Virus record (IMG/VR): IMGVR_UViG_3300001592_001590
Length of the DNA: 64,000 bases
Source: an uncultured virus (IMG/VR IMGVR_UViG_3300001592_001590)
Taxonomy: Duplodnaviria; Heunggongvirae; Uroviricota; Caudoviricetes
Reading direction: 5' to 3' (one strand)
The notes beneath the pieces are model-generated. The model saw only the letters and a list, made by a program, of their open reading frames with translations, was not told where the DNA came from and did not search any database. Shown here in pieces: positions 21,107 to 47,560 of this stretch (position 1 is its first letter; every line of letters begins with the position of its first letter). Made by a program: the position numbers and the translations under genes.

Positions 21107-21198
21107 GATGGCGCGTATGCTTGCTTTGTTGTTTAGATTTTAACACAACTAGTCGTTTTTAGCTAAAAAATCCGCCTCTGTTTAGAGGCGGATTGCAA

Positions 21199-21610: not shown

Positions 21611-21698
21611 GGGGGTTCCGTTTGTGAGTGTTGAGTCCTACGGCGTGTAGCCAAAGACCATTGGCTACACCAGGCAGGACCATCTGAAAGGAAACAAC

Positions 21699-22759: not shown

Positions 22760-22819
22760 CTGCCCCTGAGACCAACCTTTTGATTGACGAGCCCCCGCTA
22801 CTGCGGGGGCTTTGTTCGT

Positions 22820-23299: not shown

Positions 23300-23367
23300 A
23301 TCGGGGTCCTAGAAAAAGCCGCGCTCACCAGAGCACGGCTTTTCAATCAACAGTTGGGCCTCACGGT

Positions 23368-25231
23368 TCAGGCCAGCTGAGCGTGCAGCTCGGTTTTGGC
23401 CCGGTCTTCTTCCATGCGGGCAAGACGAACTTGCAGCAGGGAGCCCGATTCCAAGACCGAGCCGTCCAGCTTCCAGCATTCCTTGTCATCGTCGTAGCGA
23501 TACCCCGCGTCCATCAGCTCTTCANNCGACAGCAGCAGCGAGCACTGCCAGGCAGCGACCACCGCACGAAGTCCGCGACGGGACTGCGACACCACGTGGG
23601 CACACAGCACCGTTCTCGGGAGAAACTTCGCGGGCCATCACGCGCTTCTTGAGCTTGTCCCACACCCAGCGCTCGGACATGCGCGCATCGCGCGAGCGCT
23701 GCGAGCAGTGTTCGCTCAGAGCGGCCAACGCCGTTTCAGGTTGGGTGTTTTCACCCAGCAACAGGCGGTGTGCCAGCAAATCAGGGTAACGCCGGATGGG
23801 GCTGGTGAAGTGCGTGTAGGACTCATAGCCCAGGGAGAAGTGCGAGGTCAGACTTTCGTCGTAAATCGCGGGCTGCATCCCGTTGCGCACCTGCAGTTCG
23901 GCCTTGAGCACGTCGTCGCCCTGAGTGGACTCAATGAGCTGCGACAGCGCCTTCATGGAGGGTTGTTCGGGCAGGGTGATACCCCGTCCTTGCGCCCACA
24001 CCTGCAGGCGGCTCCAGTCTTCGACGTCCGGTGCGGGTTGGTGGCGGAAAAATGCCGAGCCAGCCACCGAGCGCAGGCGTTGGGCCGCGCACTGGTTGGC
24101 CAGCAGCATCATCTCCTCCACCAGCTTGTGCGCATCGTTGCGTTGGCTCCAGCCCAGCTTGAACGTGCCGTCCGCGTTGAGGTCCAGCTTGGGCTCGCGG
24201 TCGTCAAATTCCAGCTGGCCACGTTCGCGACGCAGCCGGGCCATCACCTCGTAGACCTGCCACAGCGCTTGCAACGATTGCTCGATGCGGGGCGCGACCT
24301 CGAACTGCCCGTGTTTCCAGGCAAAGGTCTCCGTGTAGGTCATGCGCTGGGCCGAGCGGATGACCGCGCGGCGGAAGTGGGTCTTGCGGACTTTTCCGTC
24401 CACGTCCAGTTCAATGTCCAGCACCACGGCCAAGCGGTTTTCCCCCGGCACGAGCGAGCACACGCCGTTGGACAGCGCCTCGGGAAGCATAGGCACCGTT
24501 TTGCCGGGCAGGTAGACGGACGTGGAGCGGCGAGCCGCCACCTTGTCCAGCACCGAGCCTTCACGGACGTAGTGAGAAACGTCCGCGATAGCGACACTGA
24601 CCAGCCAGCCGTCGGCCAGGTTCTTGGCCCACAGCGCGTCATCGAAGTCCCGCGTCATCTCGCCGTCAATGGTGACGTACGGGACAGCGGTGAGGTCTTC
24701 GCGGCCCTGCATCGGGACCGTGAGGTCCTTGCACTGCGCCAGCGCACTGGCGTGGAAGTAGGGCTCAAAGTCGTAACGAGCCAGAGCGTAGTCCCCGTCA
24801 AAGCCGCTGCGACCGCGTTCGCCGAGCACACGCTCCAGCGTTGCTTGCACCTTACCACCTCGTGTACCGGCGGAGGTAAACCCCCGCACGCGCACCGAAA
24901 CCACCGTGCCTTCGGCCGCGAACTGCAGGTCACGCACTTCGATGCGCACAAAGCACGCCTCGTCGTTGTCCAGCACCCAGGTGCCTTGGTCTTGGCGCAG
25001 CACGCCCTGCCACACGCTGTCTTTGCGGCGGACAACCAAGGGACCTGCGACTTGCAGGGCCCCGGGCTTCTTGCCTTCTTCCAGGGTGAAGCTGATGCGG
25101 TCACCTGGCAGCAACTCACGCATCAGAGGCGGAGAAATGAAATGTTCGGAGGCGTCGTCACAGGTGACAAAGCCAAAGCCTTTAGGATGAGCGCTGACCA
25201 CGCCCTCGAGTTTTGTTGAAGTGTCCTTCAT
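23368..25231 (-). CDS. RNase R/RNase II family exoribonuclease (frameshift near 23610)
   Basis: N-terminal cold-shock domain HPKGFGFV; RNB motifs TIDG..TRDFDDA, IADVSHYV, VEEMMLLAN, HFSLG..YTHFTSPIRRYPDL. Confidence 0.93.
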
Positions 25232-25422
25232 GTATTTTTCTTTCTGTGTTTTTGGATTCTGCTCTAGGTATATAACCTGACAGTTCATTTTAGCTTGCTT
25301 TGGCCAAAACCTTAATATTATTTAGAGCCTTTAGATGCAAAAGCGGCCCGCTGGGGCCGCTGCAGGGGGTCGTGGGCTTGCCGCTCAGCAGGGCGTTCCG
25401 CGAAACAAGGCACGGATGTGGC

Positions 25423-25600
25423 GGGAGCCCGCTTCGAATTGACATCCTCCCCTCCCTAAAGGAAGGGGATTCCAGTCCTCACAGACTGGCCTTCCTGCTT
25501 CACCGAGGACCGCCGCCGAAGGCCTCAAGGCCCTCTTTGGTCTTACGCCCTCTCCACAGGCTTAACGTCCCGCGAGTCCCGCGGTACCGAATTGTGTCGC
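25423..25600 (-). ncRNA. putative TnpB omega/reRNA scaffold plus flank-derived guide
   Basis: Hairpin-rich sequence spanning the tnpB 3' end to the TCAA right end. The guide would be the adjacent flank TTCGAAGCGGGCTCCC. Boundaries inferred. Confidence 0.6.
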
Positions 25601-26775
25601 CGCCAGGCCTGCCAGAAGCAGGTTGCGCGCGGCGTTCGTGTCTCTGTCGTGCTCCACGCCACACACGCAGCGCCAGCGGCGCTGCGAGAGCGTGAGCTCG
25701 GCGTTCTTTGCCCCACACGCGTGGCACAGCTTGCTCGAAGCGAAGTTCTTCGGTGCCTGCCAGAAGGTGCGCCCGTACCAGCTCGCTTTGTAGGCGAGCT
25801 GGCGCAGCAGCTCACCCCAGGCCGCGTCCGAGATGGACCGCGCCAGCCGGGTGCGGATGAGTCCCTTGATGTTCAGCTGCTCCGCAAACACGGCTTGGTT
25901 TTCGCGAATGAGGCTCGCGGAGAGCTGATGGGTGAAGTTCTGGCGGGCGTCGCCGACCCGGGCGTGCAAGCGTGCCAGGCGCCGGCGCGCCTTGGCTCGG
26001 TTCTTCGAGCCCTTGACCTTGCGGCTGAGCGCCTGAGCCGCTCGTTTGACGCGGTCCAGGAGCTTGACCAAGAACTTAGGCGGCGAGAGCTTCTCGCCGT
26101 GCTGGTCGACGATGTAGCTCTGCAGCCCCAGGTCGATGGCTTTGACCGCCTCGACCTGCGGCAAGGGCGCCACGGCCTCCTCGCACAGAAAGCTCACGAA
26201 GTAGCGGCCGGCGCTGTCGCGGCTGACCACGGCCTGGCTCGGGGCACTGGGCAGAGCGCGCGACCAGCGCACCTGCACGGGCCCGTCGAAGCGTGCGAGA
26301 AAGAGCTGACCGTCCTTCACGCGAAAGCCGTGTCGCATGAGCGTCACAGCCTGGCGCTCGTGCTTGGACTTGAAAGAGGGGTAGCGCCCCCGCCCCGAAA
26401 AGAAGTTCTGGAACGCCTGGCTCAGGTGCTTGAGCGATTGCTGCAGCACGATGTTGGAGACGTCGCCGAGCCAGGTCTTGTCGGGCTCTTGCTTCAAAGC
26501 GGTGAGGGCCTTGCAGTCTTTGGCGTAGGTGGAGCCTTGCTGGTGCTCCTTCCACGCCGCGCTGCGCGCGGCCAGGAAGTGGTTATAGACAAAGCGCGCA
26601 CAGCCGAAGGCCTGCCCAGGGAAAGCTTTTGGGCTTCGCTGGGGTAAAAGCGGAACTTGTACGCGCGATGAATCATGAGAGGGCTTTAAGTATAGACCTT
26701 AAAGCGCTTTAAAGGCAAGGCCTTGCGCCGCTGACCCCGCCCTGAAGAGACGGGGCTTGCGCGGCGCGGCAGGGC
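25439..26775 (-). mobile_element. IS200/IS605-family (IS1341-like, tnpB-only) insertion sequence
   Basis: Right end ...CCCTTCCTTTAGGGAGGGGAGGATGTCAA ending at 25439. Left-end hairpin AAGCCCCGTCTCTTCAGGGCGGGG at 26735-26758. No tnpA. Left boundary approximate. Confidence 0.85.
25562..26676 (-). CDS. tnpB: TnpB RNA-guided endonuclease (frameshift near 26625)
   Basis: RAYKFRFYP, FGCARFVYN, RuvC-I AIDLG, RuvC-II AEQLNIKG, CHACG/CVCG zinc ribbon, RuvC-III HDRDTNAARN. Confidence 0.93.
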
Positions 26776-26907
26776 CAATCCGTGCAGGCGAAAGCGCCCC
26801 GCCTCGGCGACGCCTTTGAGCACTTCTTCGTAGCCTTGCAGGAACACGGGCATGTTCACAGGCAAGTGGGTGACGCGAGCAAGATGTTCGGCGAATTCGT
26901 TTTTCAT
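26776..26907 (-). pseudogene. 5' part of a possible HU/IHF-like protein interrupted by the IS
   Basis: ATGA-coupled to the GT2 stop. MKNEFAEHLARVTHLP...GRFRLHGL resembles the HU N-terminal half. Confidence 0.35.
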
Positions 26908-27980
26908 GGCGTGGGGACTTTTTCTGTGGAACACGGGGAGGGCGCGGAGGATTGCGCGACTTCGGCGTCGGCCAGCTCGAGCAGCTGTGTCAAGAAGGCG
27001 GCCAGCTTTTGTGGGGAATAGGCGGGAATGCGGGAGTTGCTCTCGATGAGCTTGTCAAAGAGCGCTCGAAGCTCCCGGCGTACGTAAGGCCAGGTCTGCA
27101 CGAGGCGCGGCTGTTGGTGCAGGTACGCGAACCAGGGCATGTGGCAGTGCAAAGCGTTCACCGGTAGGCTTGCGTTCCAGCGGGAACGAAAGCTCAGGTA
27201 GCCCACCAGGTCCAACAACTGGGTCTCACGGTCACTGGGGTGAACACCCATCTTGAGCAGGCTCAGGGCCCGCGCGGTCTTGCGCAGCCCAAATACGAGT
27301 CCATCCTCAAACGCGCGGGTGGTCAGGTTGTGCACATGCCGGCGGTAGTAAAGCGTCACCTCACGGCAATGCCGCTTACGCAGCGGGTGCGTCGCAAAGA
27401 ACAGCCAGTCCTCGGACGTGGGCGTCTCGGGGAATCGGACATCAGGCCGAGCAAACACGCGACCGCGGAACAGCGCGTTGGAGATGTAGAAGTGGCACTC
27501 GAACACGTTGGCGATGGCCTGAATTTCGGGGTCCGGACTGAAGGTGTCCACCACGTGGCGCGGGTGGTCGTTGTCATAAAACAGCTCCAACTGGCCACCC
27601 ACACACTCCAGCTCTGGCTCGGCGGCGAACAGCGCCAGCTTGGTTTTGAGGTGGTCTTTGGTGAGCAAGTCGTCGCCGTCCACGAAAGCGACAAAGCTGT
27701 CCGGGGCACCCGCCTGGCTGTTGAACCAGTCCAGTAAAAAATTGCGGTTGCGTCCGATGCCCCGGTTGGTCAGGTTCAGGTGTACCGACACGTTGGAGAA
27801 CTTGTTTTCCATTGTGCGCAGCACCTGCGCCGTGTGGTCGGTGGAGGCGTCGTCCACCACCAGAACACGGGCCTGAGACAGAAATTCTTCCAGCGTCAGG
27901 TACTGGGCGCGCAGCGAACCGAGCATGTCTTCGATGTAAGCCGCGTGGTTGAAAGTGGTGACAAGGTAACAGTGGCGCAT
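26904..27980 (-). CDS. glycosyltransferase family 2
   Basis: TTFNHAAYI, VLVVDDASTD.T, NRGIGRNRN, FVDGDD, SEDW motifs. Confidence 0.9.
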   Translation of the reverse strand: MRHCYLVTTFNHAAYIEDMLGSLRAQYLTLEEFLSQARVLVVDDASTDHTAQVLRTMENKFSNVSVHLNLTNRGIGRNRNFLLDWFNSQAGAPDSFVAFVDGDDLLTKDHLKTKLALFAAEPELECVGGQLELFYDNDHPRHVVDTFSPDPEIQAIANVFECHFYISNALFRGRVFARPDVRFPETPTSEDWLFFATHPLRKRHCREVTLYYRRHVHNLTTRAFEDGLVFGLRKTARALSLLKMGVHPSDRETQLLDLVGYLSFRSRWNASLPVNALHCHMPWFAYLHQQPRLVQTWPYVRRELRALFDKLIESNSRIPAYSPQKLAAFLTQLLELADAEVAQSSAPSPCSTEKVPTP

Positions 27981-28088
27981 AGGGCAGTAGGCTAGTTTTT
28001 GGCGTATAGCGCCCCGCCCCCTCAAACCTAAACAGTGACACGATGCTTGTCTAAATTTTAGCGCACTTTTGTATTTGCTACATTGACC

Positions 28089-28117
28089 TTGACAACCAGT
28101 ATCTGTAATGCTACAGT
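28089..28117 (+). promoter_or_regulatory. near-consensus sigma70 promoter
   Basis: TTGACA-17 nt-TACAGT with TG extension. Confidence 0.75.
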
Positions 28118-28174
28118 TCTGTCATCAAACACCGTTTCGGCCTTCGGGCTTTTTCACACACTCACAGGACATCT

Positions 28175-28627
28175 ATGAAAATCAACTCTGGCTACGGCAA
28201 ACGCGTCACCCTCGTGCGCTTGGACACTGAACTGGGCAAGCAGGCGTTTGCCCGAGCTGCGCTCTCGGATGGCGCTTCGGCGAAAAACATCAGTCGCATC
28301 GAAATCGAAGAGGTCACCCCTCGCCCCATGACCCTGGCCAAGATTGCCTCCTTCGGGGGCGTCAGCCTGGAGTGGCTGGCCAAGGGCAAGATGGCGCTCA
28401 AGGCCAATGACATCGTTCGCACCGGTGGCGTCGGCGCACGCATTGCGGAAGTTCGTCGCAAGCGCGGCCTGACCCGCAACGCTCTGGCCCGCATGGCCAA
28501 CCTGGGCAACACCACGAAGAACATTTCCCGCCTGGAGACCCGCGAACACCAACCGCGCGCTCGCACGCTGGCCAAGATTGCCTCCGTGCTCAAGGTCACC
28601 CCCGAGTACCTGGCTTACGGTCGCTGA
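28175..28627 (+). CDS. tandem XRE-family helix-turn-helix regulator
   Basis: Two homologous halves: KNISRIE...PR..TLAKIAS..GVS.EWLA.G and KNISRLE...PR..TLAKIAS..KVT.EYLA.G. Confidence 0.85.
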   Translation: MKINSGYGKRVTLVRLDTELGKQAFARAALSDGASAKNISRIEIEEVTPRPMTLAKIASFGGVSLEWLAKGKMALKANDIVRTGGVGARIAEVRRKRGLTRNALARMANLGNTTKNISRLETREHQPRARTLAKIASVLKVTPEYLAYGR

Positions 28628-28664
28628 TGCGCGGCGGTTGCGCCTGCCACTATTGAATCTTCTG

Positions 28665-28695
28665 AAAGCCCCTCTTTTGCCGGAGGGGCTTTTTC
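28665..28695 (+). terminator. intrinsic terminator
   Basis: AAAGCCCCTC...GAGGGGCTTTTT. Confidence 0.7.
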
Positions 28696-28775
28696 TAATG
28701 GGAGCTCAGGGCGGGGAGCAGTTCGGGCCCGTTGGCTATACGTGGCAGGATTAACTACTACCCCGAGGAACTTCT

Positions 28776-29234
28776 ATGTCTGCAACCGCTTACTGGAACC
28801 TGAGCCACCTGGACACCCGCAGCCAATTCGCCAAGCCCGGCCTGAAAAAGCTCATCAAGAGCACTTTCTCCCGTGCTCAGCGCCGTGGCGCCAAGCGTGA
28901 CGTGGCCCGGGAGACGACGTTGGCCTTGGCCACCGACCTGTCCAGCATGACGCCCGACGAGCTGGAGCTCTACGCGGATGCACTCCTTCAGGCCTCCCAC
29001 CTGGATGACGTGCAACCCGATTGCGACAGCCAATGGCCTGAAGAGGCACAGTCGTTCATCGCTGAAGAACCGAGCATTCCTTGCAACTTGCAAGGCGCAC
29101 TGCCGGATTGGATGCTGGCGCAAATGGAAGCGGCCAAGGGCAACGCTTTCGAGCTGCTGTCCCTGTTTGAATCGAAAGGCAACCCTTCCCCCAAGGCCGC
29201 CATTTCGATGGAAGACGAGGCCCTGTACGCCTGA
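28776..29234 (+). CDS. hypothetical protein
   Basis: GAGGA RBS. Basic N-terminus, acidic C-terminus. Confidence 0.65.
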   Translation: MSATAYWNLSHLDTRSQFAKPGLKKLIKSTFSRAQRRGAKRDVARETTLALATDLSSMTPDELELYADALLQASHLDDVQPDCDSQWPEEAQSFIAEEPSIPCNLQGALPDWMLAQMEAAKGNAFELLSLFESKGNPSPKAAISMEDEALYA

Positions 29235-29376
29235 TGAGGCCGTTTGCTGTTGAGGTTCGCCCTCGCAGCTGACATCCGCTCATTCCAAACCGCATCGTCA
29301 AGATGCGGTTTTTTTTGCGGCTAAAAGCTTGCAAAGCTGTTTGCTACACAGCACAAAACCCTTACTGTGTCCTGCA

Positions 29377-32041
29377 ATGACTTCTCAATTTAAAAAGCGC
29401 CTGGCCGCACTGCTCAGTTTCACACTGGCGGTTGCCCCCGCCCTTGCCAATCCGTATGAATACCGTAAAGCAGTGCCCCGCTTTACGGTAGAACCGTCGG
29501 TCACTGCGCCCCCACCTCCTGCCCAGACCGCCAATTTGGTGGTCTCGACCGCCTCGCTGGATTTCAGCGGAAAGGTGGTCGGACTGAGCAGCCAGCAGAC
29601 TTTCACGGTGACCAACGCAGGAACCCAGTCGGCCGCTTGGTCGAACGCACCGGCCCTCTCAGGCAACGCCGCCTTCAGCATCGCAAGCACCACCTGCTCC
29701 GGCACCCTGACGGCGGGAGCCAGCTGCGCGGTGACCGTGCAGTTTGCGCCCACCCAAGTGGCGTCTGTCACGGGTCAAATTGGCCTCACGGCAGGGGGCG
29801 TCTCCAAGACCGTGTCGTTGGTGGGCTCCGGCGATGGCGCCCGTGCCCTGGACATTGAAGGCCCGGCTCCGGAGCTGAGCGTGCGCCAAGGTGAAAGCGT
29901 ATCCGGCTCGTTCACCATCGCCAACAACAACTCGTCCGCGATGGTGTTGGGCACCGTGGCGGTCACGGGAGGCTCTGCCCAGTATTTTTCCGTGAACGCC
30001 TCCAACTGCAGCGGCAAAACCCTGCAGCCCGGCACCGCCTGCACTGCCACCATTGTCCTGAGTGGCGGCAGCGCCGGCAGCGGCCCCATGCCCGCCGGCA
30101 GCGTCAGCGCCACGGTGTCGGTGCCCGTCTCCGGAGTGACCCAAACCCTGACGGTTCCCGGCACGGTCGTGGCCCGCGATTACATCTTGCTCTCGGGAGG
30201 CTCCCAATCCAACACTGTTTGGGACTACGGACTCTTCTGCTACAACCGGCACAGCGGCGTCTACGGCGGCACGGTCAGCCAGTACGCCTGCACGGGCGGG
30301 GGCGGCTACACATACGCCGATAACCGTATCTCCTGCACCACTTGCGTGAAGTACCAGGACGGCGTGACGTTGTCCGCAGTCTCCGTGCCGTTCAACAGCA
30401 TGACGGTGGGCGTGCCCAAGTCGTTGCAGGTGGCTGTACAAAACAACTCGGCCTCTAGCGTGGACCTGGCGGTCACGGCTCTGTCGATGACCTATGGCGC
30501 GGCCTCGGACGTGAATCTAACGACCAGCTGCAACACCACGCTGGCTTCGGGCGAGCCCTGCCTGTTGCAGATTGACCTGACACCCTCTTCGGCGACCAGC
30601 TACCTGGGTCGCATCACACTGCAGTCCAACGCCGAAGGCTCGCCGTACTACGTGACCTTCACAGGCACCTCTGCGTACCTGAACGCCACGGTCGGGCCCT
30701 TCTCTGTCGCGGCCGTGGACTACGGAGCGGCCCCCTTCACGCTGACAGCGCCAACTTCCAACAGCCCCGGTGCTTGGACCTACACCTCCAGCAACCCCGC
30801 AGTGGCCAGCGTTTCGGGCAACACGGTCACTGTCGTTGCCGGCGGCTCCACCACCATCACCGCCAGGCAAGCGGCAGCGGGCAGCTATGGCCCGTCAACG
30901 GTCATCGCCACCCTGACCGTCAACCCCATCAACCCGACCGTGGGCTCGTGGGCGGGCATGACCAAGGCGGTGGGTGACACTGCAACCCTGACCCCGCCGA
31001 GCTCCACCAGCTCCGGCACCTGGACCTACGCCATTTCGGACGCGACCGCAGCCACTATCGTAGGCTCGACCATCACGTTCTCCAAGGCGGGCAACTTCAC
31101 GCTGACGGCCACGCAAGCTGCCACCGGCAACTACAAGACCGCCAGCGCCACGGCCACTGTGACCGTGACCCAGGGCGCGCCGGTAATCGGTGCATGGAGC
31201 TCTATCAACGTGGCGTCTGGCTCTTCGGCATTTTCGCTGACCTACCCCACTTCCACCAGTAACGGCGCGTGGAGCGCGACCTCGTCCGACCCCACCGTTG
31301 CCACTATTAGCAATGGGGTGGTCACGGTGGTCGGCTTGGGCACTACCACGCTGACTGCGACGCAAGCCGCTACTGCAAACTACGCAGCGGGCAGCGCCGT
31401 CACCACGCTGACGGTCACGATTCCCTCGGGCAGCACCAAGCTGATGTGGCAGTTCAACGGGACTGCTGCCACTACTGCGACGGCAGCTAATCTTGTGAGC
31501 GACACGGGGCATACTGCCACCAACGTGGGGGGTGTTACCTACACCGCAGGAGGGGTGGAGGGCAACTACGCTCGCTTCTCGGGCGGCTCCATCGACATCT
31601 ACAGCGCCGACCTGCAGCTCTCCAACAAGCCCTTTACGCTGGAATGGTGGCAGCGCGGCGCCANCACCATGCCGCAGTTCACGTTTGGCACCCCGCCGCA
31701 GTACTCCACCGCGGTCAGCAACGGCACGGGCCTCTACTTCTCCACCAGCGGCTCGAATTGGGGCTACGTACTGTACCCCGCTGCCATCTCTGCCTCGGGC
31801 TGGACGCACATGGCACTGGTTCGCAACAGCACGCACCTCGTGCTCTACCAAAACGGCGTGGCCAGGACATACTACCCCCATTGGCAGCAACGTCGCGCTC
31901 ATGAACTCGCCAGGCAACCGGCTTGCGTTCGGAACCTACTCCGGGGGTTCGACCATGGACATCGACCAGGTTCGCCTGACTGTGGGGGTGGCTCGCTACA
32001 ACGGCAACTTCACCCCGTCAACAGCCTTGACCGTGAACTGA
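29377..32041 (+). CDS. secreted Ig-like repeat adhesin (ASPM-SPD2-Hydin/choice-of-anchor D-like, Big_2-like repeats, C-terminal LamG-like domain), frameshift near 31875
   Basis: Signal peptide, Thr/Ser/Gly-rich. C.GTL.AG.SC...V.F.P repeats, three YTSSNPAVA.VSG-like repeats, FTLEWW..WTHMALVR..LYQNG and IDQVRLT.GVARY..NFTP. Confidence 0.8.
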
Positions 32042-32083
32042 CCGTTGACCTCCAGGGGCTCGGCCCCTCAGGTTGAATAGACA

Positions 32084-32113
32084 GCCCCTCCTGCTCCTGC
32101 AGGAGGGGCTTTC
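32084..32113. terminator. intrinsic terminator between convergent genes
   Basis: AGCCCCTCCTGC-TCCT-GCAGGAGGGGCT. Confidence 0.75.
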
Positions 32114-32140
32114 TCTTCTATAGAAGAGGCGTTCCCTAGG

Positions 32141-32785
32141 TCACCGCTGCCAGACCGCAATGAAGTCACGGCTGCCATTGACGGCCCTTGAATACAGCCA
32201 AGGGGGAAAAATCTTCTCATGCGGCAAGGCCCATATGGACTTGTGGGTGTGGACTTGTTCATTACCGATGAAGATGTACGTCTCGCATTGGCGAATGATG
32301 TCTTCTTCACACACCCCATCCTGGTTGCCGCCCGCCTCGTGCCGGCGGGGGTCGTAGCGGTGGGTCACCCAGCTGGCCACTACCACTTGAGGTCGAAACT
32401 GGGCCACCGCCTGCGCGGCGTCCAACTCCAGGACATCTTCGCCGTACCGGATGGTCGGCTGCCGAAGCATTTCATAGTGCGCACGAATTTCAGGCCAGCT
32501 TTGCTGGTGGTTGTCCGTGGCCACAATGCCCAGGGCCCGTGCCAGGCCTCCGTGCCCCGCGCCAATCTCCAGGGCCGAGCGACCGGCAATCAAGCTTTGG
32601 ACGTGCTCCACCAGCTCGGTGGTCAGCAAGCCGTAATACGCGTGGCGAACCCCAAAGAGGGCGCGCTCTTCTCGGGTGGTTTGTGCTAGCACCGAGGCGT
32701 CCACGACCTTCAATCGCCCTTGCTCATCCAGCAAGAGTGGCGCTATGTCTCGAATTTTGTTGGGGTCAATCGTGGCATGGTGCAT
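32141..32785 (-). CDS. SAM-dependent methyltransferase-like protein
   Basis: ALEIGAGHGGLARALG..ATD motif I. Confidence 0.65.
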   Translation of the reverse strand: MHHATIDPNKIRDIAPLLLDEQGRLKVVDASVLAQTTREERALFGVRHAYYGLLTTELVEHVQSLIAGRSALEIGAGHGGLARALGIVATDNHQQSWPEIRAHYEMLRQPTIRYGEDVLELDAAQAVAQFRPQVVVASWVTHRYDPRRHEAGGNQDGVCEEDIIRQCETYIFIGNEQVHTHKSIWALPHEKIFPPWLYSRAVNGSRDFIAVWQR

Positions 32786-32869
32786 GCCGAGATGATACGA
32801 GGAGCAGGGAGAATGGGGTGAAGGGCTCACCCCCGAGCCACAGTAATCGCACCAACGGAGCGCGGCCCC

Positions 32870-33283
32870 TCAATCGGTCAGGCCGCGCAGCACCGCGTCA
32901 TGCAAAGGGAAGGCCAGCGTGTCCTGACCTGTCACGGTCACCAGCTCCGACACCTCCCGGTTAGGCTCAAACCCATACAGGTCCTCTTGTGTCAGCTGAA
33001 CGCTGGACTGCATGAATATGAGCAGCTTGTTTTCGGCCGTGACCCGGGTGGCAATGGGCGTCCAATGCTCGGGGCCTATGCTCAAGCCCGTCTCCTCCAG
33101 CAGCTCTCGGCTCGCGGCCATCTCGGCCGACTCGCGCTCATCCACATAGCCGCCAGGGAACGTGATGCCCCCCTGACGCGGAGGCGTGGCTCGGCGCACC
33201 GCCAAAAAACGTTTTTCTTGAGGGTGCCGCACTTGTACGACGGCCACGGCCACAGGCGTTGGGTTGTTGTATTCGGAGGTCAT
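32870..33283 (-). CDS. Nudix hydrolase
   Basis: YNNPTPVAV and Nudix box GGYVDERESAEMAASRELLEETGL. Confidence 0.9.
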   Translation of the reverse strand: MTSEYNNPTPVAVAVVQVRHPQEKRFLAVRRATPPRQGGITFPGGYVDERESAEMAASRELLEETGLSIGPEHWTPIATRVTAENKLLIFMQSSVQLTQEDLYGFEPNREVSELVTVTGQDTLAFPLHDAVLRGLTD

Positions 33284-33384
33284 GCGTGTTGATGGTTCGG
33301 TATGAACCGTGTAGCGCACGACCTCCGTGGTTGGGGCTCTAACCTGACACATCCAGGCGTTTGCGGTGCTCTGCGCGCTGGCGC

Positions 33385-33756
33385 TCAGCCCAGGGCGAAG
33401 CCGCCCGCAATGCACGCGAAGCAGGTGGGGCGCTGCACGGGCTCCCACCGGTCCGTCTGCTCGTTCCAGTGGAACCAGGTTTCGTTGGCGCCCGGATTTT
33501 CCAGGTCGCCCAAAGGGTGGATGCCTTCGTCCAAGGTTTCCACCACACACCAGGTGTACAGGCACTCATGCAAGTCCCCGGCATTGCGCAAGACGGCTTG
33601 CACAGCCTGCTCTCGGTCGAGGAAATACCCGAAGGTGCGGTGCGCCGCGCTCAGGTACTGAACGTTGCGCTTTTCGTCCAGGTGCTCCGGTTTCGGAGAC
33701 TGAAAGCGCCGGGCATTCTCCAGGTAGTTCTCGTCAAAGCAGGTGATGAAATGCAT
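33385..33756 (-). CDS. phage-type hypothetical protein
   Basis: RTFGYF...A..AV..N.GDLHE..Y...VVE...EGI. GGAG RBS. Confidence 0.65.
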   Translation of the reverse strand: MHFITCFDENYLENARRFQSPKPEHLDEKRNVQYLSAAHRTFGYFLDREQAVQAVLRNAGDLHECLYTWCVVETLDEGIHPLGDLENPGANETWFHWNEQTDRWEPVQRPTCFACIAGGFALG

Positions 33757-33810: not shown

Positions 33811-35467
33811 TCAGGCTGCCCAGTGGACTTGCGCCGTCTGGCTGGGCAGGTTCTGCTCCCAGAGCTGCCACACCCGAGACACGTGGGCCTTGGTCAGGCG
33901 CGCCTGGTTGAACGTGTTGGTGCCCGCAGGGCGAGGCGTGTCAGCAGGGCGTGCGGGCACCTTCTTGCCTGCCAGGCGGTAGGCGGTGACCACCATGGCC
34001 CAAGTGTCGTGCGAGCAGTAGCGCAGCAGGCGTTGACGGGTGAGGTTGAACATGGCCTTGTCAAAGCCACCGCCCACCGCAGCGAGGTAGCCCAGCTGAG
34101 CGTCCACCCCGTTCTTGACCCCTTCGAGCTGGTCGTAGCTGAAATCCGGGGCCAGGCACGGGAGCACCTTCTTGATGGAGTACGACCCCTTCATGTCGGG
34201 GTGGTAGTAGAAATCGCGCACCCACAGCTCCAGGTCCACCAGTCGAGCGGCAACGCTCAACAAAGCCTTGGACATCTCGGGATAGCGCTCGGCCATCTCC
34301 TTGAGTCGAGAGCCCTCGTAGGAGGCGTGGTACACCAGCACCGGGCCTTTTTTGCCCAGGGCCCGAATCAACGAGGTCGCACAGGCCTTGGCAGGGTCGT
34401 TGCCACTGAGCTCAATGAAGGCTTTGTGGGTGAACACGCCGGGCGCAGTCTCGATGTGCAAAGACCACTGGAACGGCACCTGCTCATACGGACGACGGTC
34501 CTTCCAGGCAGGCAGCGCCAGGCTGATGGCCTCAAAGTCAAAGTAGTAGCGAGGAAAGGGCAGCTCTTTGAGGGCCTTGGCCGCTTTTTTGCTCTTCCAC
34601 GGCGTGCCGCTCAACAAGCTGTGCAGCACCGGCTGCAGGGCCTCGGGCGCGGCGTCCAGCTCATGGTCGGGCACTTTGGTGAGGTCGTAGTAGCCCATGG
34701 AGGCCCAGCGGTCTTGCACCATCCAGAACTTGCCCGGGATGTCGTAAATGGTCAGGGCAGGGCGGCCTTTTTGGCTCTTGCAGTGTTCCGAGAAGGGGCA
34801 GGGGAAGGGTTTCTTGCAGTGGCGCGTCACCTTGACCTTGGGCTCGCGGTTGCTTTGCAGCACCTCGCGCAGGGCCTGAACTTCCGCAGGGATTTCCTTG
34901 CGACCTGCTTTGACTGCTTCCGTCATGTCCACGCGGGTGAGCAGTCCCTGGTAGGTGGGGTCTTTGCCGTCCCAGGCAACGTCCCGGTCCAGCCCGTGGA
35001 CCGCGAACTGCATGGCCTTGAAGCGGTGGCGTGCCAGCCCCCAAGCCATGACGGACAGGCGGTGGCTCAAGCGCTGGTGTTTGTCTTTGTCCAGTGCGCC
35101 ATCGCGCAAGGTGGACGCGGTGATTTCCGAGGCAATCAGGCCCCGGCTCTTGGTCTCAAGCACGTCGGGGCGAAAGTGCACCCCCTGCGTCACGAACGAC
35201 GCGTCAAAGAAGCTTGCTTGGGGGTGGCGAGCCATCAGCTCGCGGGTCATGTCCAGCGCCTCCGTCCGGGGAGCCGTGTACGGTGAAGGCCCCGTGAAAT
35301 TGGCGGCGCGCGGCGCGGTTGACGGCCTCGGCCTGCAGCTGCCAGTAGGCAGCATCTTCGGGGGCTTGTGCCAGTTCGGGGCGGTGCTCTTCCAGCCAAG
35401 CGCGGCGAGCACATTGTTGAAAGCTTTCCAGCCGCTGAGCGGGCAGGATGGGGATGACCTTTTTCAT
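33811..35467 (-). CDS. DUF2779-domain predicted nuclease (N-terminal frameshifts)
   Basis: YFDFEA, RPYEQVPFQWSLH, LVDL, YYHP.MKGSYSIKKVLP, YCSHDT. C...CPF..HC cluster and QC..R.WL start. Confidence 0.85.
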
Positions 35468-37719: not shown

Positions 37720-37857
37720 TTGAAAATTTCCTTTGATTTCATGGCCTGAAGCGCACCCCGGAGGGCGCTTGACTCTTCAGGCATTTTAGCCTAAAGTCGA
37801 TAAGACACCAAGAGTTTAGATAGCAACACTCAAGGGTCAGATTCATCAGGAGTTTTA

Positions 37858-38179
37858 ATGCATCAAGTCCTTGTCACCATTGACACTCAGGGCGCGGTTC
37901 AGGTCAAAGCGACATCCGCGCAGGTTCAGGTATTGGTTTTTGCGAGAAGCAGGCCCCGACACAGGCGCAACCCTGCAGGTCGATGGCACCGCGTACGAGG
38001 CCGCAGCGGTGTTGGAAGGCATTGCGCAAGTTGATGAAGTCGAGGTGCAAGCCGCGTTTCAGAGCGTGGCGCCTGAGCTGGAGCGCCTAAGCCGGGCGGC
38101 AGACCAGTCGATGCGGTCGCGGGCGCAGCTCAAAACGCTGGCGCGACAGCTGGCGCGCGCTGAGACCGACCCGGGTTGA
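37858..38179 (+). CDS. hypothetical protein (frameshift in T-run near 37940)
   Basis: AGGAG RBS, MHQVLVTIDTQG.. joining frame 37871-38179. Confidence 0.55.
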
Positions 38180-38238
38180 GTGGACCCGGGCACGTCTGCC
38201 GGTTTCTCCTGGAAGGCTAAAACCAGCCGCTTTACTGG

Positions 38239-38310
38239 TTACGAGGCCTTGGTCAGGGTTCCTTCTAACCTCATCACTTATTTGAACCTACCCGGCCGCT
38301 TTCCTCGTGA
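38239..38310 (+). ncRNA. structured RNA motif, copy 1 (free-standing)
   Basis: TTACGAGG/CCTCGTGA outer stem enclosing GGTCAGGGTTC-CTTCTA...GAACCTACCCGGCC. Core nearly identical to 40559-40621. Confidence 0.6.
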
Positions 38311-38401
38311 CCCGCAATCCGCGACCCAAGCCCTGCTTGAGCCGCGGTTTTTGCTTTTGGGGCGGCCAAAAAGAGGCCGCCTGCGATGCAGGCGGCGTGA
38401 A

Positions 38402-38820
38402 TCAAGCGGTGGCGTTCAGCACAGGTCTGACCAGCTGAGGCTGGCGACAATTGCTGTAAGGCGTTGCAGTGGCCGGGTCGCTGAAGAAGCTCTCAGGCCC
38501 GGACACCGCCAGTTGCTGGCGTTGCGAAGCGAGCCAGGGCTCCAAGTCCTGGGGGTGCGCCGGCGCTTCGATGGACAACGCCTCCACGTCGTACGATGGC
38601 CAGTCGCGCCCTTGACCGGAACGCATTTGGTTCGCAGCACAGCGCGCACAAATTCCCCCGACGATTGAAGGTAGACCACCATGCGTTGCAGCAAAGGGCC
38701 TTGGACAAAGTCCCACTCCTCAAACCGCTGGGCGCAGTCGCTTACCGTGCCTCCCGAGCGAAAGCGAAAGCCTTGCTCTTGTAGCCATGAGGGCCAGGGT
38801 GTCTTTAGACTGGCAGTCAT
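38402..38820 (-). CDS. hypothetical protein (probable frameshift)
   Basis: MTASLKTPW.. with GGAG RBS and GCTACAC motif. Confidence 0.5.
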
Positions 38821-39608: not shown

Positions 39609-40376
39609 TCAAAGCTGGTTCACGGCTGCCACAAAACTGTCCAGGTCGCAGCCATACAGGCCCGCGGAATTGGCCGAGTTCAGCTCCAGGACACGAGGCC
39701 CTGCGCTCGTCATGGCCACGTCCAGGGTGTACGCCCGGTTGGGACTCCAGACCTTGCTGCAATGCTGCGCAAACGCCCACACATCCGCGGGCACCGGTCG
39801 GTCGGTGCGCGCCCGGTCTCCCAGCTTGTACAAGGAGGCGGCCACGACCCGGCCGTCGATGACTAAGGTGCGGTATTCCGCTTCAATGGGCACCAGGGAG
39901 GCCACGGCCACCCGGTTGCTCAGGCGCAGCGTCGCATCCGGCTCATCCGCCACCCGGGCAACGCCTTCGCGAAAGGCCTGCAACTCGAGCCCGTTCATCA
40001 CACTGCCCGCGAAGGCCTTGTTGTCCAGCACGGGGCGGATGAAAAACGGGCCGTCCAGCGCTTGTGCGTCCTGCAGCGTTGAGCAGGTGGCGTTGGCGTT
40101 GAGCGCCAACTCGCCGTAGCGCTGCAGCATCAGCTCGTAGTCGAGATTTTCGTCGAAATACCCCGGGTTCCAGCCCTGAGCTTTGGCCACCTGGCCCAGC
40201 CCGGTACTGCCGTACACAAACACAGGCTCGTGCAGGACAGGCGCCGGGCCGTCCAGCACGTTGAACAAAGGGATGAGCTTGACCTGGGTGAATGGCGTGC
40301 GCTGGCGCGCCAAGGCCTCACACAGGTCTTGTAAAGAGCGGGGGTTGAGCAAATTGCTCTGCACTATCCAATGCAT
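39609..40376 (-). CDS. ATP-grasp protein (DUF4343/R2K-like)
   Basis: FFIRP....KAFAG.V, I.AEYR..VIDG.VV..SLY, AYTLDVA......VLELNS.NS.GLY. Confidence 0.8.
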   Translation of the reverse strand: MHWIVQSNLLNPRSLQDLCEALARQRTPFTQVKLIPLFNVLDGPAPVLHEPVFVYGSTGLGQVAKAQGWNPGYFDENLDYELMLQRYGELALNANATCSTLQDAQALDGPFFIRPVLDNKAFAGSVMNGLELQAFREGVARVADEPDATLRLSNRVAVASLVPIEAEYRTLVIDGRVVAASLYKLGDRARTDRPVPADVWAFAQHCSKVWSPNRAYTLDVAMTSAGPRVLELNSANSAGLYGCDLDSFVAAVNQL

Positions 40377-40481
40377 GGTGTCATTTTTTAGAGTTCCAGC
40401 TCAGTTTAGCAACGCCGATACGAATAGTTTTTTGGATAGTTTCAGTCTTTCGAGATAGCTCTAGTCCCAACCAATATTCTG

Positions 40482-40494
40482 TAAGTTGTTGATT
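40482..40494 (-). promoter_or_regulatory. IHF binding site
   Basis: Reverse strand AATCAACAACTTA is an exact match to WATCAANNNNTTR, 18 bp upstream of the sigma54 site. Confidence 0.7.
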
Positions 40495-40512
40495 TTAAAG
40501 CATGTGGGCACC

Positions 40513-40528
40513 TGGCACGCTGATTGCA
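40513..40528 (+). promoter_or_regulatory. sigma54 (-24/-12) promoter
   Basis: TGGCACGCTGATTGCA matches TGGCACG-N4-TTGC(A/T) exactly. Confidence 0.85.
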
Positions 40529-40558
40529 ATAAATTACTTGTCGCTGGCGACAGCGGCA

Positions 40559-40621
40559 GAGGCTTCGGCTCAGGGTTCCTTCTACTTCAACTCTTAATGA
40601 ACCTACCCGGCCACTTCCCTC
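40559..40621 (+). ncRNA. structured RNA motif, copy 2 (between sigma54 promoter and CDS)
   Basis: GAGGCTTCGGCTCAGGGTTCCTTCTA-14 nt-TGAACCTACCCGGCCACTTCCCTC. Confidence 0.65.
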
Positions 40622-40644
40622 AACCTCTACTCGAAGACTGTCCC

Positions 40645-42732
40645 ATGAAAACGCTTGTACTGTTGGCTCACCAATTCGTCGACCTGTCCCTGGACCCCAA
40701 CGCGGGCTCTCAGGTCCGGCGCGCTCGAGGGGTGGACGCGTCCAGTGCGCTGGGAACGGTCTTGGCCAATCTGGCGTACTTTGGCTATGCCCCGTCGCTG
40801 GAAGTCTTGGCGCAGTGGCGCGGCTGGAGCGCTGAGCAGCTGTGCGTCTGGTGGGAGATGCGAGAGCCCCATTTTCGCAGCTTCACGGGAGCGGACCGCC
40901 AGATGGACCGGTTCGTCGTCTATAAGAACTTTCCAAAGGAAGTCCTGGGCATGTCTCAAGCGCAATACTGGACGGCGCAGCTGTTCATGTACCTGGGCGC
41001 GCCCAACGAGTGGTTCACCCAAGAGGAGCAGACCCGCCCGGCGCTGGACGAGCGCCTGCGCCTGAAGACCTTGGCCCTGGCGCAAGCGGACACGCTTCAA
41101 CGCCTTTACGACTCGATGGTGGGCTCCAAGGCTCGCTGGACAGAGCCGCAGGCCGCTTATGCCCTCTTTTTGGCCAAGGACCTGGGCGTGCGAGCCCTGG
41201 ACCTGGCGGATTTTGGTTTCAAAGAAAACGGGGTCACCTTGATGGCCCGCCTGCTTGACGCTCAACTTGCGCTGCGGGTGCACGACGCCACCGACGTGGC
41301 GCGCCTGGCGGCCGCCTTGTCCGGACAGGACGTCTCGCTGCGAACTGCCGTGCGCTTTCGCCACTTTGCCCGCCCTCAACGGCGCCAGCTGTTGGCCCTG
41401 CTTGAGCAGTGCAAGAACCTGGAAGCCGACTTTGCGATGCGTGAGTCACTGTGGAAGCAGCTCCTGCGTGGGCTGCGCCCCGGGGACTACGCCTTCAAGC
41501 GGGTTCAATCCGCTTACGACTTGCTGTACCGCGGCTGCCTGGAGACATTTTCGGCCAGCATCGAGTCGGGCCTCTTTCACAAGGACGCTCGGGTAGTCGA
41601 GCGGGCCGCATCGCGCCCGGGCGACTTTGTGCGCCGGCTGCACAAGCTCTACGCCCTGTTCCCCGCTCAGACCGTGGCCGCTTTGGACAAGGTGGTCGAT
41701 AAGCTGCAGGTGATGCAGCTGCTCAAGCTGCGCAACTACCTGGTGAGCGTGCGGGGACGCGCCTACTTCTTGCATGCGCCCAAGGGCAACTGGTCCAAGG
41801 CACGCCTGGCCGCCAACACCAAGGCCACCCTGGAGCCCGCCGACTTGTCGGCCATGCTGGCCAGCATCGACCGGGTCTTGGAGGCTCGCCTGCGCGCTCA
41901 GCTGCCTCAAGGGGTGGATTTGGACCTGGCCACCGATGAAGTGAAGCTTCAGGCGAACGACCAGGAGTTGGCACCGTATGGCCGAGGTACTGCCTTCCCG
42001 TTGCCGGCGTCCGCCCGGTTTGTCCGCACTGCAAGCTACTGGGCCACGCAGCGCACTGGCAACGTCTGGTTCGACAACTCGTTCAACTTCTTTGACGAGC
42101 AGTGGCACTCCGTTGGAACCTGTTGCTGGAACGTGACCAATGACTTCGGGGCAGGCGCGGTGTTCTCAGGCGACCCCACCAACTCCAAGGACATGCAGGG
42201 CCGGGCTTGCCAGCTGATTGACCTCAACCTGGATGAGCTGGCACGCCGGGGCGTGCGCTACGCGGTGTGGAGCGTTCTGGGCTTCAGCCACATGTGCTTC
42301 TCCGACGCGGATGACGTGTTGGCCACGCTGCAGTGGGGAGAAGACCCCTGCGCGGGCAAGCTCTATGAGCCCGCCCGGGCCCAGATGGTGTTTCCGCTCA
42401 AAGGCAAGAGCCTCACCAAGTACGTGGCCTATGTGGATGTCGTGGAAAAGCGCCTGGTGTACCTGGACGCCAACCTGCGTGGTGCGGTCAACTCGGCTGC
42501 GTCCAACGGGGCGCACCTGTCCACGGTCATGCCCGCCTTCGATGGAGTACCTCAAGGCGCTGCCCTCTGTGGCGGACCTGATGGTGCACGCGCCCCGAAG
42601 GCAGCGTGCCCGTGCGCTACGACGCGACGCGAGACGGCCGCCGTGGACGAAGGCCAGCTCGCCTACGTGTTCCGTCCGGTGAACCCGGCCAGCCAGTTCA
42701 AACCGCTGTCGCTGGAGCGGTTGTTGGGCTGA
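40645..42732 (+). CDS. large alpha-helical protein with C-terminal TerD-like domain (resembles MXAN_6230/SCO0854-type proteins), minor frameshifts near 42545-42600
   Basis: YKNFP..V, RPGDFVRRL, VRTASYW..WFDNS, AVFSGDPTNS, ACQLIDLNL..L...GVRYAV..V..FS. Confidence 0.7.
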   Translation: MKTLVLLAHQFVDLSLDPNAGSQVRRARGVDASSALGTVLANLAYFGYAPSLEVLAQWRGWSAEQLCVWWEMREPHFRSFTGADRQMDRFVVYKNFPKEVLGMSQAQYWTAQLFMYLGAPNEWFTQEEQTRPALDERLRLKTLALAQADTLQRLYDSMVGSKARWTEPQAAYALFLAKDLGVRALDLADFGFKENGVTLMARLLDAQLALRVHDATDVARLAAALSGQDVSLRTAVRFRHFARPQRRQLLALLEQCKNLEADFAMRESLWKQLLRGLRPGDYAFKRVQSAYDLLYRGCLETFSASIESGLFHKDARVVERAASRPGDFVRRLHKLYALFPAQTVAALDKVVDKLQVMQLLKLRNYLVSVRGRAYFLHAPKGNWSKARLAANTKATLEPADLSAMLASIDRVLEARLRAQLPQGVDLDLATDEVKLQANDQELAPYGRGTAFPLPASARFVRTASYWATQRTGNVWFDNSFNFFDEQWHSVGTCCWNVTNDFGAGAVFSGDPTNSKDMQGRACQLIDLNLDELARRGVRYAVWSVLGFSHMCFSDADDVLATLQWGEDPCAGKLYEPARAQMVFPLKGKSLTKYVAYVDVVEKRLVYLDANLRGAVNSAASNGAHLSTVMPAFDGVPQGAALCGGPDGARAPKAACPCATTRRETAAVDEGQLAYVFRPVNPASQFKPLSLERLLG

Positions 42733-46425: not shown

Positions 46426-47560
46426 TCAGCCCTCCATGGCCTCGGCGAGCGCACCATCGGCCAGCACGCGCAGGCTGAACTCCTGGCGCAGACGGTTCTT
46501 GATGAACCAGTCCTTGACGGTCCACTTCCTGCCCCAGGTAGTGTGCCATCATCAGACCGAACAGCGGGTGGCTCTTGTGCTCCATCGCGAACGATTTTCG
46601 GTCCAGGTGCCGAGATTTCGCCACGGTCGCTTCGATTTCTTCGGTGAGCTCCACCATGCGTCGTTTGACGCGGCTTTCGACCTCCAGCACCGGTTGCATG
46701 TCCACGCCGGACTCGGCCAAGGCACCTACNNGNTNTACGNNCAGCACTTCGGTCAGCGCGGCCACCGCGATGTCGCGTTCGCGCAGAAACGTGATGCTGC
46801 GGTGCAAGCGCAGGTACCAGGGGCACTTGAGCTTGACCATGTCGCCGTTGGCGAACTGCAGCACGTAGCCTTCTTGCTCAGCCATGGCATCCAGCGAGGC
46901 CAGAACTTGCGGCAGGCTCATGCCGGTAAACCGCGGCGCCAGAGTCACCCCGATGCTGACGCAGCATCGCGTGGATGCGATGCTGTTCGTCCAGCAGCAC
47001 ATACTGGCCCGTTGCGTTGTCGCGCACGTGCAGCAGGCGCAGCTGAGGCTTGTCTTGGGCCACGACGATGCGTGCCTGCGGGTGCGTCAGCTCAAAAATG
47101 GCCGTCATGCCTTGCGAGGCGACCTCAGTGGCAAACGCCACCAGGTGCTCCTGCCCCGGCTGGCGCAGAAAGTCTTGCGTGAGCTTGACCACATCCGACT
47201 GGAAGGACTTCTTGGAGCGCCAATGCAGCGCGCCGTCCACCCAGGCCGTGGCCATCATGGAGCCGTCGAGTTTTTCGAACACCGCGACCAGGTCATCTCG
47301 CTGCAGCAGACGGTCTGCCGTGAGCCAGGCCTTTTCGCCGAGGTTGAAAAACTTGTGCAACGGCCGAGAGCAGATGCGGCCCTCTTGGTCGAACGCGATA
47401 CCGCGGCACTCCAGCGCTTCGGGGCTGTCAAAGGTGGCGCTGTCCATGAACAAGTAGCAGCCGACCGTGACGCCGTTGGCTTGGGGCTGAAAACGTAATT
47501 TCTTTTTNGTGGNCGACCGCAGGCTGAACGTCTGCGAGTCGATGGATTGCTTTAAACGAC
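46426..47560 (-). CDS. T4 Rnl1-like RNA ligase (several frameshifts/Ns, start uncertain)
   Basis: ECRGIAFD, SRPLHKFFNLGE, motif I EKLDGS, FEL..P..RIV, EGYV, VKLKC.WY..LH. Confidence 0.88.

Follow-up and report, generated by a model that had tools for sequence, protein, structure and literature searches.

Among the described systems that resemble the locus reported here is that of Ro60 (Rsr) and its Y RNAs (YrlA/YrlB), in which small structured RNAs, sometimes several and also in phages, are encoded beside the gene of the partner protein and on the same strand; two papers (PMC4201824, PMC9879122) place the Ro60/Y RNA pair in a setting of RNA repair under RtcR/sigma-54 control in Salmonella. 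The likeness extends to a predicted sigma-54 promoter in front of one of the two hairpin RNAs that we describe (copy B), to a Variovorax relative that lies beside rtcR, and to phage copies found among tRNA, Thg1-like and RNA ligase genes. For the associated protein, however, the fold searches, in which residues 1-300 are barely covered, gave TerD and generic helical repeats and no Ro60 with its TROVE/vWA ring, and the hairpin, unlike a Y RNA, has neither an Rfam Y RNA match nor a tRNA-like domain, with copies also found inside mRNA leaders.

CsrA/RsmA and the decoy RNAs CsrB/RsmZ offer a second comparison, as one short module is present in mRNA leaders and repeated in free, titrating RNAs; here, by contrast, the module is a 65-nt, three-helix UCCUUCU hairpin without GGA, and its presumed binder a 700-aa TerD-domain protein. 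Type III toxin–antitoxin systems (ToxIN, CptIN, TenpIN), carried by plasmids and phages, share the order of promoter, RNA units, terminator and protein gene, but our units are alike in structure and not in sequence, with no processed direct repeats, the protein is no small ToxN-type endoribonuclease, and arrays are also found downstream of the gene. The autoregulatory leaders of ribosomal proteins likewise carry a leader copy of an RNA site present elsewhere, with feedback a possibility for copy B, although neither a ribosomal protein nor an rRNA site is involved here. We recognise no described system with such a combination of RNA, protein and layout.

Two copies of a hairpin RNA in the window

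The window (the whole stretch of viral DNA that was analysed, 64,000 nucleotides in length) holds the hairpin twice on its plus strand, once behind a small gene (copy A) and once in front of the gene for a 695-aa protein (copy B). The features needed to follow the argument are listed below, scores being those of covariance model R3, which was built from 108 rows (106 from outside the window, with both window copies included).

37769..37797, plus strand: sigma-70-like promoter of the small gene, TTGACT-17-TAAAGT (promoter scan)
37858..38179, plus strand: small conserved gene, ~104 aa, matching the homologue at 1260-1574 of the syntenic locus L007 in two frames
38241..38308, plus strand: copy A of the hairpin RNA motif, a ~65-nt hairpin (46.2 bits, E 4e-9)
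38319..38358, plus strand: intrinsic terminator after copy A, CCGCG...CGCGG then UUUUUGCUUUU (-21.8 kcal/mol, z = -2.59)
40483..40496, plus strand: AAGTTGTTGATTTT box preceding the promoter, resembling an IHF site when read on the opposite strand (consensus match)
40513..40528, plus strand: putative sigma-54 type promoter TGGCACgctgaTTGCA (TGGCAC-N5-TTGCA; consensus match)
40557..40623, plus strand: copy B of the hairpin, within the 5' leader of the 695-aa gene (38.2 bits, E 4e-7)
40645..42732, plus strand: gene encoding the 695-aa protein (PHROG 33734), which is helical in its N-terminal part and has a TerD fold from about residue 452 to 633

Reading copy A from its 5' side, we see GAGG at 38243-38246 and the start of the terminal loop, UUCCUUCUA, at 38259-38267, with the 3' end (...ACCCGGCCGCUUUCCUC) reached at 38306. 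The closing stem P1 is formed by ACGAGG/CCUCGU and can be extended to 38237-38312; P2 pairs GGUC with GGCC and P3 pairs GGGU with ACCC, the 3' side of the internal loop reading GCUUU. A 106-nt region spanning the copy folds at -34.6 kcal/mol (z = -3.99), a value matched by 0 of 200 shuffles. Copy B folds to the same shape, more weakly (z = -1.54).

The sequence of 38221-38310 was reread and is identical to that given in the initial annotation, which had also claimed a second copy of the motif; we find it at 40557-40623 (+) by the covariance model and, in the sequence as read, at 40559-40621. With up to 3 mismatches, the 17-mer GGTCAGGGTTCCTTCTA is present 2 times in the window, where 0.14 would be expected, a count attained by 0 of 100 shuffles; the 3' arm 17-mer, at the same tolerance, is also present 2 times against 0.27 expected (2 of 100 shuffles); a scan of the 64 kb with R3 (both strands, filters off, E<=1) returned exactly these two sites. 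The 8-bp closing stem that had been described is present, although it contains one G.U pair and extends to 10 bp (GGUUACGAGG/CCUCGUGACC), and the AACCAG/CTGGTT hairpin placed before copy A has GGTT in common with this extension, so that the hairpin and the full 10-bp stem are mutually exclusive and cannot both form completely. The statement that the loops of the two copies differ completely does not hold, both opening with UUCCUUCUA and closing with UGAACCUA.

Copy A starts 63 nt past the stop codon of the small plus-strand gene and lies 2.3 kb upstream of the 695-aa gene on the same (+) strand; the next gene beyond it is on the minus strand, with its own terminator at 38376-38396. Its position between convergent genes had thus been described correctly, yet the stop of the small gene lies only those 63 nt before it and the plus-strand terminator follows at 38319-38358, and the word 'orphan' goes too far, since copy A may represent the small gene's 3' UTR. 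That copy A has no downstream gene for cis control in the window agrees with a general trait of the family, Variovorax copies having their own promoter and terminator and others lying between tRNA genes.

The promoter scan gave no convincing promoter for copy A itself, only weak -10-like boxes being visible by eye, and a degenerate GGCACG box lacks the GC at -12. The promoter at 37769-37797 is a possible source of a transcript carrying copy A; we infer transcription through copy A up to the terminator at 38358, starting either there or at a weak promoter belonging to copy A itself. Among assembled contigs from four of 24 sequencing runs, the form to which the expression data are confined, one from a metatranscriptome (X2) covers the entire copy A region and may represent DNA; those of X9 leave the motif uncovered, which at a depth of 2-5 carries no weight.

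A syntenic metagenome locus, L007, keeps a copy A-like free motif, the terminator and the small gene with its promoter (TTGACG-17-TAAAGT, at the same relative place), and is the only one among the loci compared that shares the small genes of the window. In L007 the terminator retains its U-tract and outer stem, and its inner stem is compensated, being changed on both sides; the terminator at 38319-38358 is missing from a simple terminator scan because its stem has an internal loop. With motif and terminator retained in L007 whilst the spacer behind the motif and the middle of the loop differ, the view that copy A is a structured RNA under selection, and not a decaying duplicate, is borne out. 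A AAGGCTAAA box common to the copy A region and L007 was set aside, as it may be due to chance or to the L007 stop codon.

The small gene is split in the window by an extra base at 37937, a 1-nt difference seen in two public runs, X1 and X2. Compared with contigs from these runs, the window has one base too many at each of 37937, 38595, 38605, 38912 and 40418; the first three account for the broken reading frames of two genes, the small one and that at 38402-38800 on the minus strand, whose homologue is intact in L007 (137 aa); the window also holds 24 N. The extra bases are probably assembly errors rather than marks of pseudogenes.

Turning to copy B, its end is separated by 23 nt from the AUG of the 695-aa gene, with no switch helix and no terminator seen between the two. 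The TGGCAC-N5-TTGCA box and the AAGTTGTTGATTTT box upstream of it make copy B the leader of a predicted sigma-54-type transcript; we take 40513-40528 to be a sigma-54 promoter, and 40483-40496 is presumably an IHF-like site, both by resemblance to the consensus. Sigma-54-like boxes also immediately precede the leader copies of L003, L004, L005, L006 and L008, and a counterpart of the AAGTTGTTGATTTT box (AAGTCGTTGATTT) in L003, L004, L006 and L008. Upstream of the sigma-54 promoters, at a distance of 60-150 nt, we also see GATAG/CTATC words in the window (40360-40500, with GGATAG at -79 and AGATAG at -60), in L003, L004, L006 and L008, and in the Variovorax locus L014 (5300-5445), where there are three and where rtcR is the divergent neighbour; these may be shared activator sites. 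Divergent from the window's sigma-54 promoter is an R2K ATP-grasp gene (39609-40376, minus strand).

Architecture and covariation of the RNA family

Alignments of all copies made with MAFFT misplaced P1 and P2, and models were therefore seeded from length-matched subsets and re-aligned by model. R1, a main-type model from three copies, gives only 18.8 and 5.6 bits on the variant type. R2 was built from 9 copies only (from Burkholderiales genomes, Bacillota, Variovorax and Streptomyces), without any window-type copy, and scores copy A at 34.2 bits; it recovers 12 of 12 window-type copies, its sole other match in 159,336 bases at E<=0.1 being a third Bacillus copy. As the R2 seeds and the window-type copies share no helix sequence, this recovery serves as a cross-check. 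At the scale of whole genomes R3 misses G001 and G002, in each of which R1 finds one copy.

The family is built from three helices, P1 to P3. Working inwards from the closing stem P1, in which the inner two pairs are G-C with few exceptions, there is an asymmetric internal loop (5' CUAU, or CCUU/CUUC in the window lineage; 3' RMUUU), then an 8-9-bp stem formed by P2 and P3 and ending in a U-A pair, and lastly a terminal loop of 20-35 nt that opens with UCCUUCU. The alignments were fitted to the model and their sequences are related, so that the pairing figures lean towards structure: 90.8% of cells are paired among 20 distinct bacterial sequences, against 39.7-50.5% with the partner slid, and 95.0% among 102 distinct viral copies, against 40.7-50.1%. 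In the bacterial and the viral alignment alike 12 of 14 pairs are changed on both sides, with a covariation of 0.713 against 0.157 for shuffled data in the former (0 of 500 reaching it) and of 0.908 against 0.176 in the latter. G.U cells outnumber A.C cells by 69 to 14, as expected if this strand is the one that folds, and one can see by eye that from clade to clade P1, P2 and P3 have been rewritten in full.

Conservation had initially been described as confined to the paired arms; we find that the arms covary and that the most conserved letters are the unpaired ones. Of 108 copies, 106-108 keep each letter of the loop start UCCUUCU (U25-U31) and all 108 keep C143; also near-invariant are the inner P1 pairs (G5 and G6 with C143 and C144), the C-U-A-U of the 5' internal loop, the U-U-U of the 3' internal loop, and the U-A pair that closes the terminal loop.

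Rfam 15 gave 0 matches at gathering score in the whole window and likewise 0 in 7 loci with arrays; around the two copies (E<=10) and the Bacillus array (E<=5) it returned only chance-level snoRNA/miRNA rows, far below the cut-offs. No RNA annotation is present at the copies in the phage and plasmid records examined, and a literature search found no paper on this RNA or protein. This is a widespread structured RNA family, apparently not described before and unnamed in the catalogues and papers searched.

Distribution in bacteria and phages

Members of the family were found in three bacterial phyla (Pseudomonadota, Bacillota and Actinomycetota), where most copies lie in 5' leaders, and at 40 of the 80 loci searched on viral contigs. 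In an Aquabacterium genome and an Agitococcus MAG it is in the leaders of genes for homologues at 48-50% identity. A pattern scan of metagenomes added six loci, five of them with the order sigma-54 box, motif, gene (in L005 with two motifs in tandem), the sixth being the free copy of L007; an extra copy in L003, found with R1, is followed by a terminator of its own, some 130 nt separating this copy from the sigma-54 promoter downstream. In two Burkholderiales genomes the order is motif, terminator and a gene homologue at 26-28% identity, and the terminator follows the motif directly, ahead of the gene, in L012 and L013.

Arrays are seen on plasmid p210 of Bacillus mycoides (L015), where a tandem pair and a degenerate third copy stand behind a TTGAAT-17-TATACT promoter and a terminator separates the RNA array from the gene; the third unit (5627-5711), with the loop UUCUUCU, ends in a U-tract and from its sequence seems to double as the terminator of the array. 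Niallia taxi has a tandem pair immediately past the stop codon of the gene. In Variovorax sp. WDL1 two tandem copies, for which a TATAAT box and a terminator can be seen, are found downstream of a RING-type relative whose own gene has a sigma-54 promoter but a leader without the motif, and in Streptomyces the motif is in the leader of a RING-type relative. The gene-linked motifs of Bacillus mycoides, Niallia, Variovorax and Streptomyces are on plasmids. Units of one array share their loops and have unrelated stems, as seen in L015 (GAUAUUCCU versus GACAAUUCU) and L016 (UAUCCAUCU versus GCCAUACCU).

Of 401 Burkholderiales genomes, the protein was found in 3. A search for the RNA among 151 relatives of one of these, G300, gave G300 itself and G133 only; both have the gene and are two of the three protein carriers. 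Four gene-bearing genomes hold one copy each, adjoining the gene.

In viral contigs the strict main-type pattern has no match, and a looser CUAU-type pattern gave 90 stretches in IMG/VR contigs, many of these contigs being 100-480 kb in length. R2, run on 80 viral loci, returned 134 matches at E<=0.01, and presence of the gene was judged with a protein-family profile over the stop-to-stop ORFs of all loci, +/-4 kb. Bearing in mind that the viral counts are not independent, since the loci were chosen via the motif pattern and some overlap or are near-duplicates, RNA matches are found in 40 of 80 loci, the gene lies within +/-4 kb in 37 of these 40, 0 of 80 have the gene without an RNA match, and 40 of 80 have neither. 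All 127 matches in the 37 gene-bearing loci are on the strand of the gene, 74 upstream and 53 downstream of it (42%), with copies upstream only in 18 loci, on both sides in 12 and downstream only in 7. Arrays of one, two, three and four units number 24, 18, 14 and 8.

The 40 pattern loci without a model match or gene are mostly 73-nt matches of one sample, and were set aside as unrelated. The 73-nt stretch itself (at 4001-4073 in L019, L022, L023, L025 and some 35 viral loci, mostly from that one sample and on 25-45-kb contigs) may be another conserved element of one phage group.

RNA matches without the gene are those of L058, which overlaps the gene-bearing L059, and of L082 and L029; in L082 the hairpin exactly fills the gap between tRNA-Pro and tRNA-Met in an array of 13 tRNAs, and in L029 two hairpins stand at the head of a 10-tRNA array. 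ARAGORN called no tRNA at the motif copies. Dispersed copies are found 1-3.6 kb from the gene in the phage loci L018, L047 and L059, those of L018 being leaders of other small genes. Amongst cultured phages, Xanthomonas phage XacN1 (three copies upstream) and Rhodococcus phage Weasels2 (three downstream) carry the gene together with unannotated copies; Lactobacillus phage LpeD has the gene and two upstream copies, likewise unannotated, with weak scores, and Rhodobacter phage RcXuper has the gene with no RNA match at E<=0.1. A permuted tmRNA (tag ANENFAPMEMRLAA) is called by ARAGORN at 1353-1775 of the RcXuper locus (L110), in a feature-less 1.9-kb gap just upstream of the TerD-type gene.

The associated protein and the proposed role of the hairpin

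Homologues of the 695-aa protein number more than 260 and are all named hypothetical, PHROG 33734 being listed as 'unknown function'. The protein has no Pfam family and a sub-threshold match to NCBIfam NF041916 (RING_SCO0854); some relatives are fused to prokaryotic RING domains, and the protein atlas holds only its own family and the RING relatives. An AlphaFold model (pLDDT 87.9, pTM 0.85) has helices to about residue 430, followed by a beta domain for which Foldseek gives TerD at a probability of 1.0 and VIA-align a Z of 14.0 (2qz7; 155 residues at an rmsd of 2.5). For residues 301-421 the sole matches are to generic helical repeats (Z 6-8). No Ro60 chain is present in the Foldseek or VIA-align rows, in which residues 1-300 are barely covered. 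The TerD fold is discussed in the literature consulted on TerD and TROVE (PMC7824862, PMC7159879), and in titles of PDB entries, as a binder of ligand or Ca2+.

We found no conserved neighbour genes across the loci, and tblastn gave no RtcR homologue in the window or in any of the compared loci but L014. Several neighbours are nevertheless related to RNA. In the window these are an RNB nuclease and an Rnl1-like ligase; the Variovorax relative has rtcR beside it, and the Streptomyces relative an RNB nuclease nearby. Phage loci add genes for a Thg1-like protein and for an RNA ligase, and in cultured phages tRNA genes and nucleotidyltransferases are near the TerD-type gene.

What we observe, then, is an RNA family with a common structure, strictly linked to one gene and biased to its strand. 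The hairpin lies before, after or away from the gene and without exception on its sense strand, the letters that do not vary are unpaired, and some copies would be made as separate small RNAs; a protein-binding module therefore fits better than a riboswitch or a stabiliser, and co-inheritance makes the 695-aa protein the natural candidate binder. A role in binding the product of 40645-42732 would fit the strict gene linkage, although linkage alone would also follow from an RNA that senses a small molecule connected with what the protein does, or from binding of RNA and protein alike by a third factor. Against the reading speak the TerD fold itself, discussed as a ligand or Ca2+ binder, the motif-free leader of the RING-type gene in Variovorax WDL1, and the gene of phage RcXuper without an RNA match. 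On the comparative evidence we give an even chance to the reading in which the hairpin is the binding module of the 695-aa protein, copies within mRNAs being operators and free copies a cofactor or decoy.

By this protein-binding reading, the protein would recognise the hairpin, and mRNA-borne copies would let it control the messages that carry them: copy B would be the operator in the protein's own sigma-54-driven mRNA, and copies before or behind other genes would put those messages under its control. Copies released as small RNAs, whether from a promoter and terminator of their own, from the 3' end of a gene (copy A) or from tRNA arrays, would serve as the protein's cofactor or as a titrating decoy. 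Copy A, which ends at its own terminator and would be made as the 3' end of the small gene's transcript or from a weak promoter, may be such a cofactor or decoy, or may subject the small gene, too, to control by the protein.

An antitoxin-like role, with a harmful protein held inactive by excess hairpins as in type III toxin–antitoxin systems, finds a case in L012, L013 and p210, where a promoter is followed by one to three hairpins, a terminator and the gene, the excess arising because the terminator separates hairpins from gene; arrays of up to four units, carriage on plasmids, phages and islands, and a gene that travels without conserved neighbours agree with it. We nonetheless consider it unlikely: the units are not near-identical direct repeats, their stems differing completely, the protein has no ToxN/AbiQ-like part and no Pfam family but a fold of TerD and helices, it is not known to be toxic, and 53 of 127 matches are downstream of the gene, with others in tRNA arrays. 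Similarly unlikely, in our estimation, is a base-pairing regulator whose pyrimidine loop (UUCCUUCUA or CUUUCC) would pair with AGAAGGAA-like ribosome-binding sites, free copies repressing in trans and leader copies their own start. C/U tracts are typical of seed regions that target Shine-Dalgarno sequences, and here the invariant letters are indeed single-stranded C/U tracts and free copies exist; the start regions of the linked genes, however, show by eye a complementarity of 4-5 nt, no better than for any Shine-Dalgarno site, and neither the exclusive linkage to one protein family nor the conserved internal loop, needless for seed pairing, would be explained.

A riboswitch or ligand-sensing leader for a small molecule related to TerD, controlling read-through or translation and with copy A as a stray or ligand-buffering copy, would account for conserved unpaired nucleotides within covarying helices, for tandem copies, for the order motif, terminator, gene in L012 and L013, and for the prevalence of 5' leaders in bacteria. 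We regard it as improbable to a marked degree, given that the same 53 of 127 viral matches are downstream, copies lie between tRNA genes and in arrays of four, no expression platform is shared (copy B standing 23 nt from the AUG without a switch helix), and the terminal loop is long and variable. Lastly, the hairpin might lack a specific partner and be a passive element of RNA processing or stability or, at the level of DNA, a repeat belonging to a mobile cassette. A 5' stem-loop near the transcript start can protect an mRNA, the hairpin begins a few nt from the predicted sigma-54 start in L003 and L004, and copies lie on both sides of the gene in 12 loci; but a stabiliser needs no loop and internal-loop letters kept invariant across four phyla and phages, the sense-strand placement of 127 of 127 matches and the five to one excess of G.U over A.C speak against a double-stranded or strand-neutral DNA site, and no integron attC-like core is seen by eye, all of which makes a passive element very improbable.

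Returning to the hairpin as a protein-binding module, the find is a rare one, being a strongly covarying RNA family that spans at least three bacterial phyla and many large phages, and that has gone unannotated even in cultured phages. It gives a first functional handle on a large protein family (PHROG 33734) without known function, and the predicted RNA–protein pairing, if true, would be a new partnership. The putative sigma-54 promoter, the rtcR gene near a relative, the tRNA arrays, and the Thg1-like, RNA ligase and RNB nuclease genes point to RNA damage and repair. Tentatively, and with more doubt than belief, we consider the possibility of a new ribonucleoprotein of phage–host RNA conflict, an analogue of Ro60–Y RNA, in which one to four UCCUUCU hairpins would act as cofactors or gates, with feedback through the leader, RtcR-like sigma-54 activation on RNA damage, and phage versions housed in blocks of tRNA and RNA-repair genes. 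As the module is present in cultured hosts and phages, it is experimentally accessible now.

Further observations concern the surroundings of these genes. The island around the finding holds, on the minus strand of the window, an RNB ribonuclease gene (23522-25288), a TnpB/OrfB_IS605 gene (25562-26497) and a NUDIX gene (32870-33565), and the same island (20249-33565, together with the region at 46878-47453) also has genes for an NT5C nucleotidase and an NAD kinase; further minus-strand genes encode a DUF2779 protein (33811-35412) and an Rnl1-type RNA ligase (46878-47453). These genes, and that of the R2K protein, recur in no other locus. In the Agitococcus MAG (L002, 7796-7860), 1.7 kb downstream of the TerD-type gene, a perfect TGGCAC-N5-TTGCA box directly precedes a tRNA-start-like sequence (GCGTAGCTCAATTGGTAGAGC); a sigma-54-driven tRNA would be unusual.
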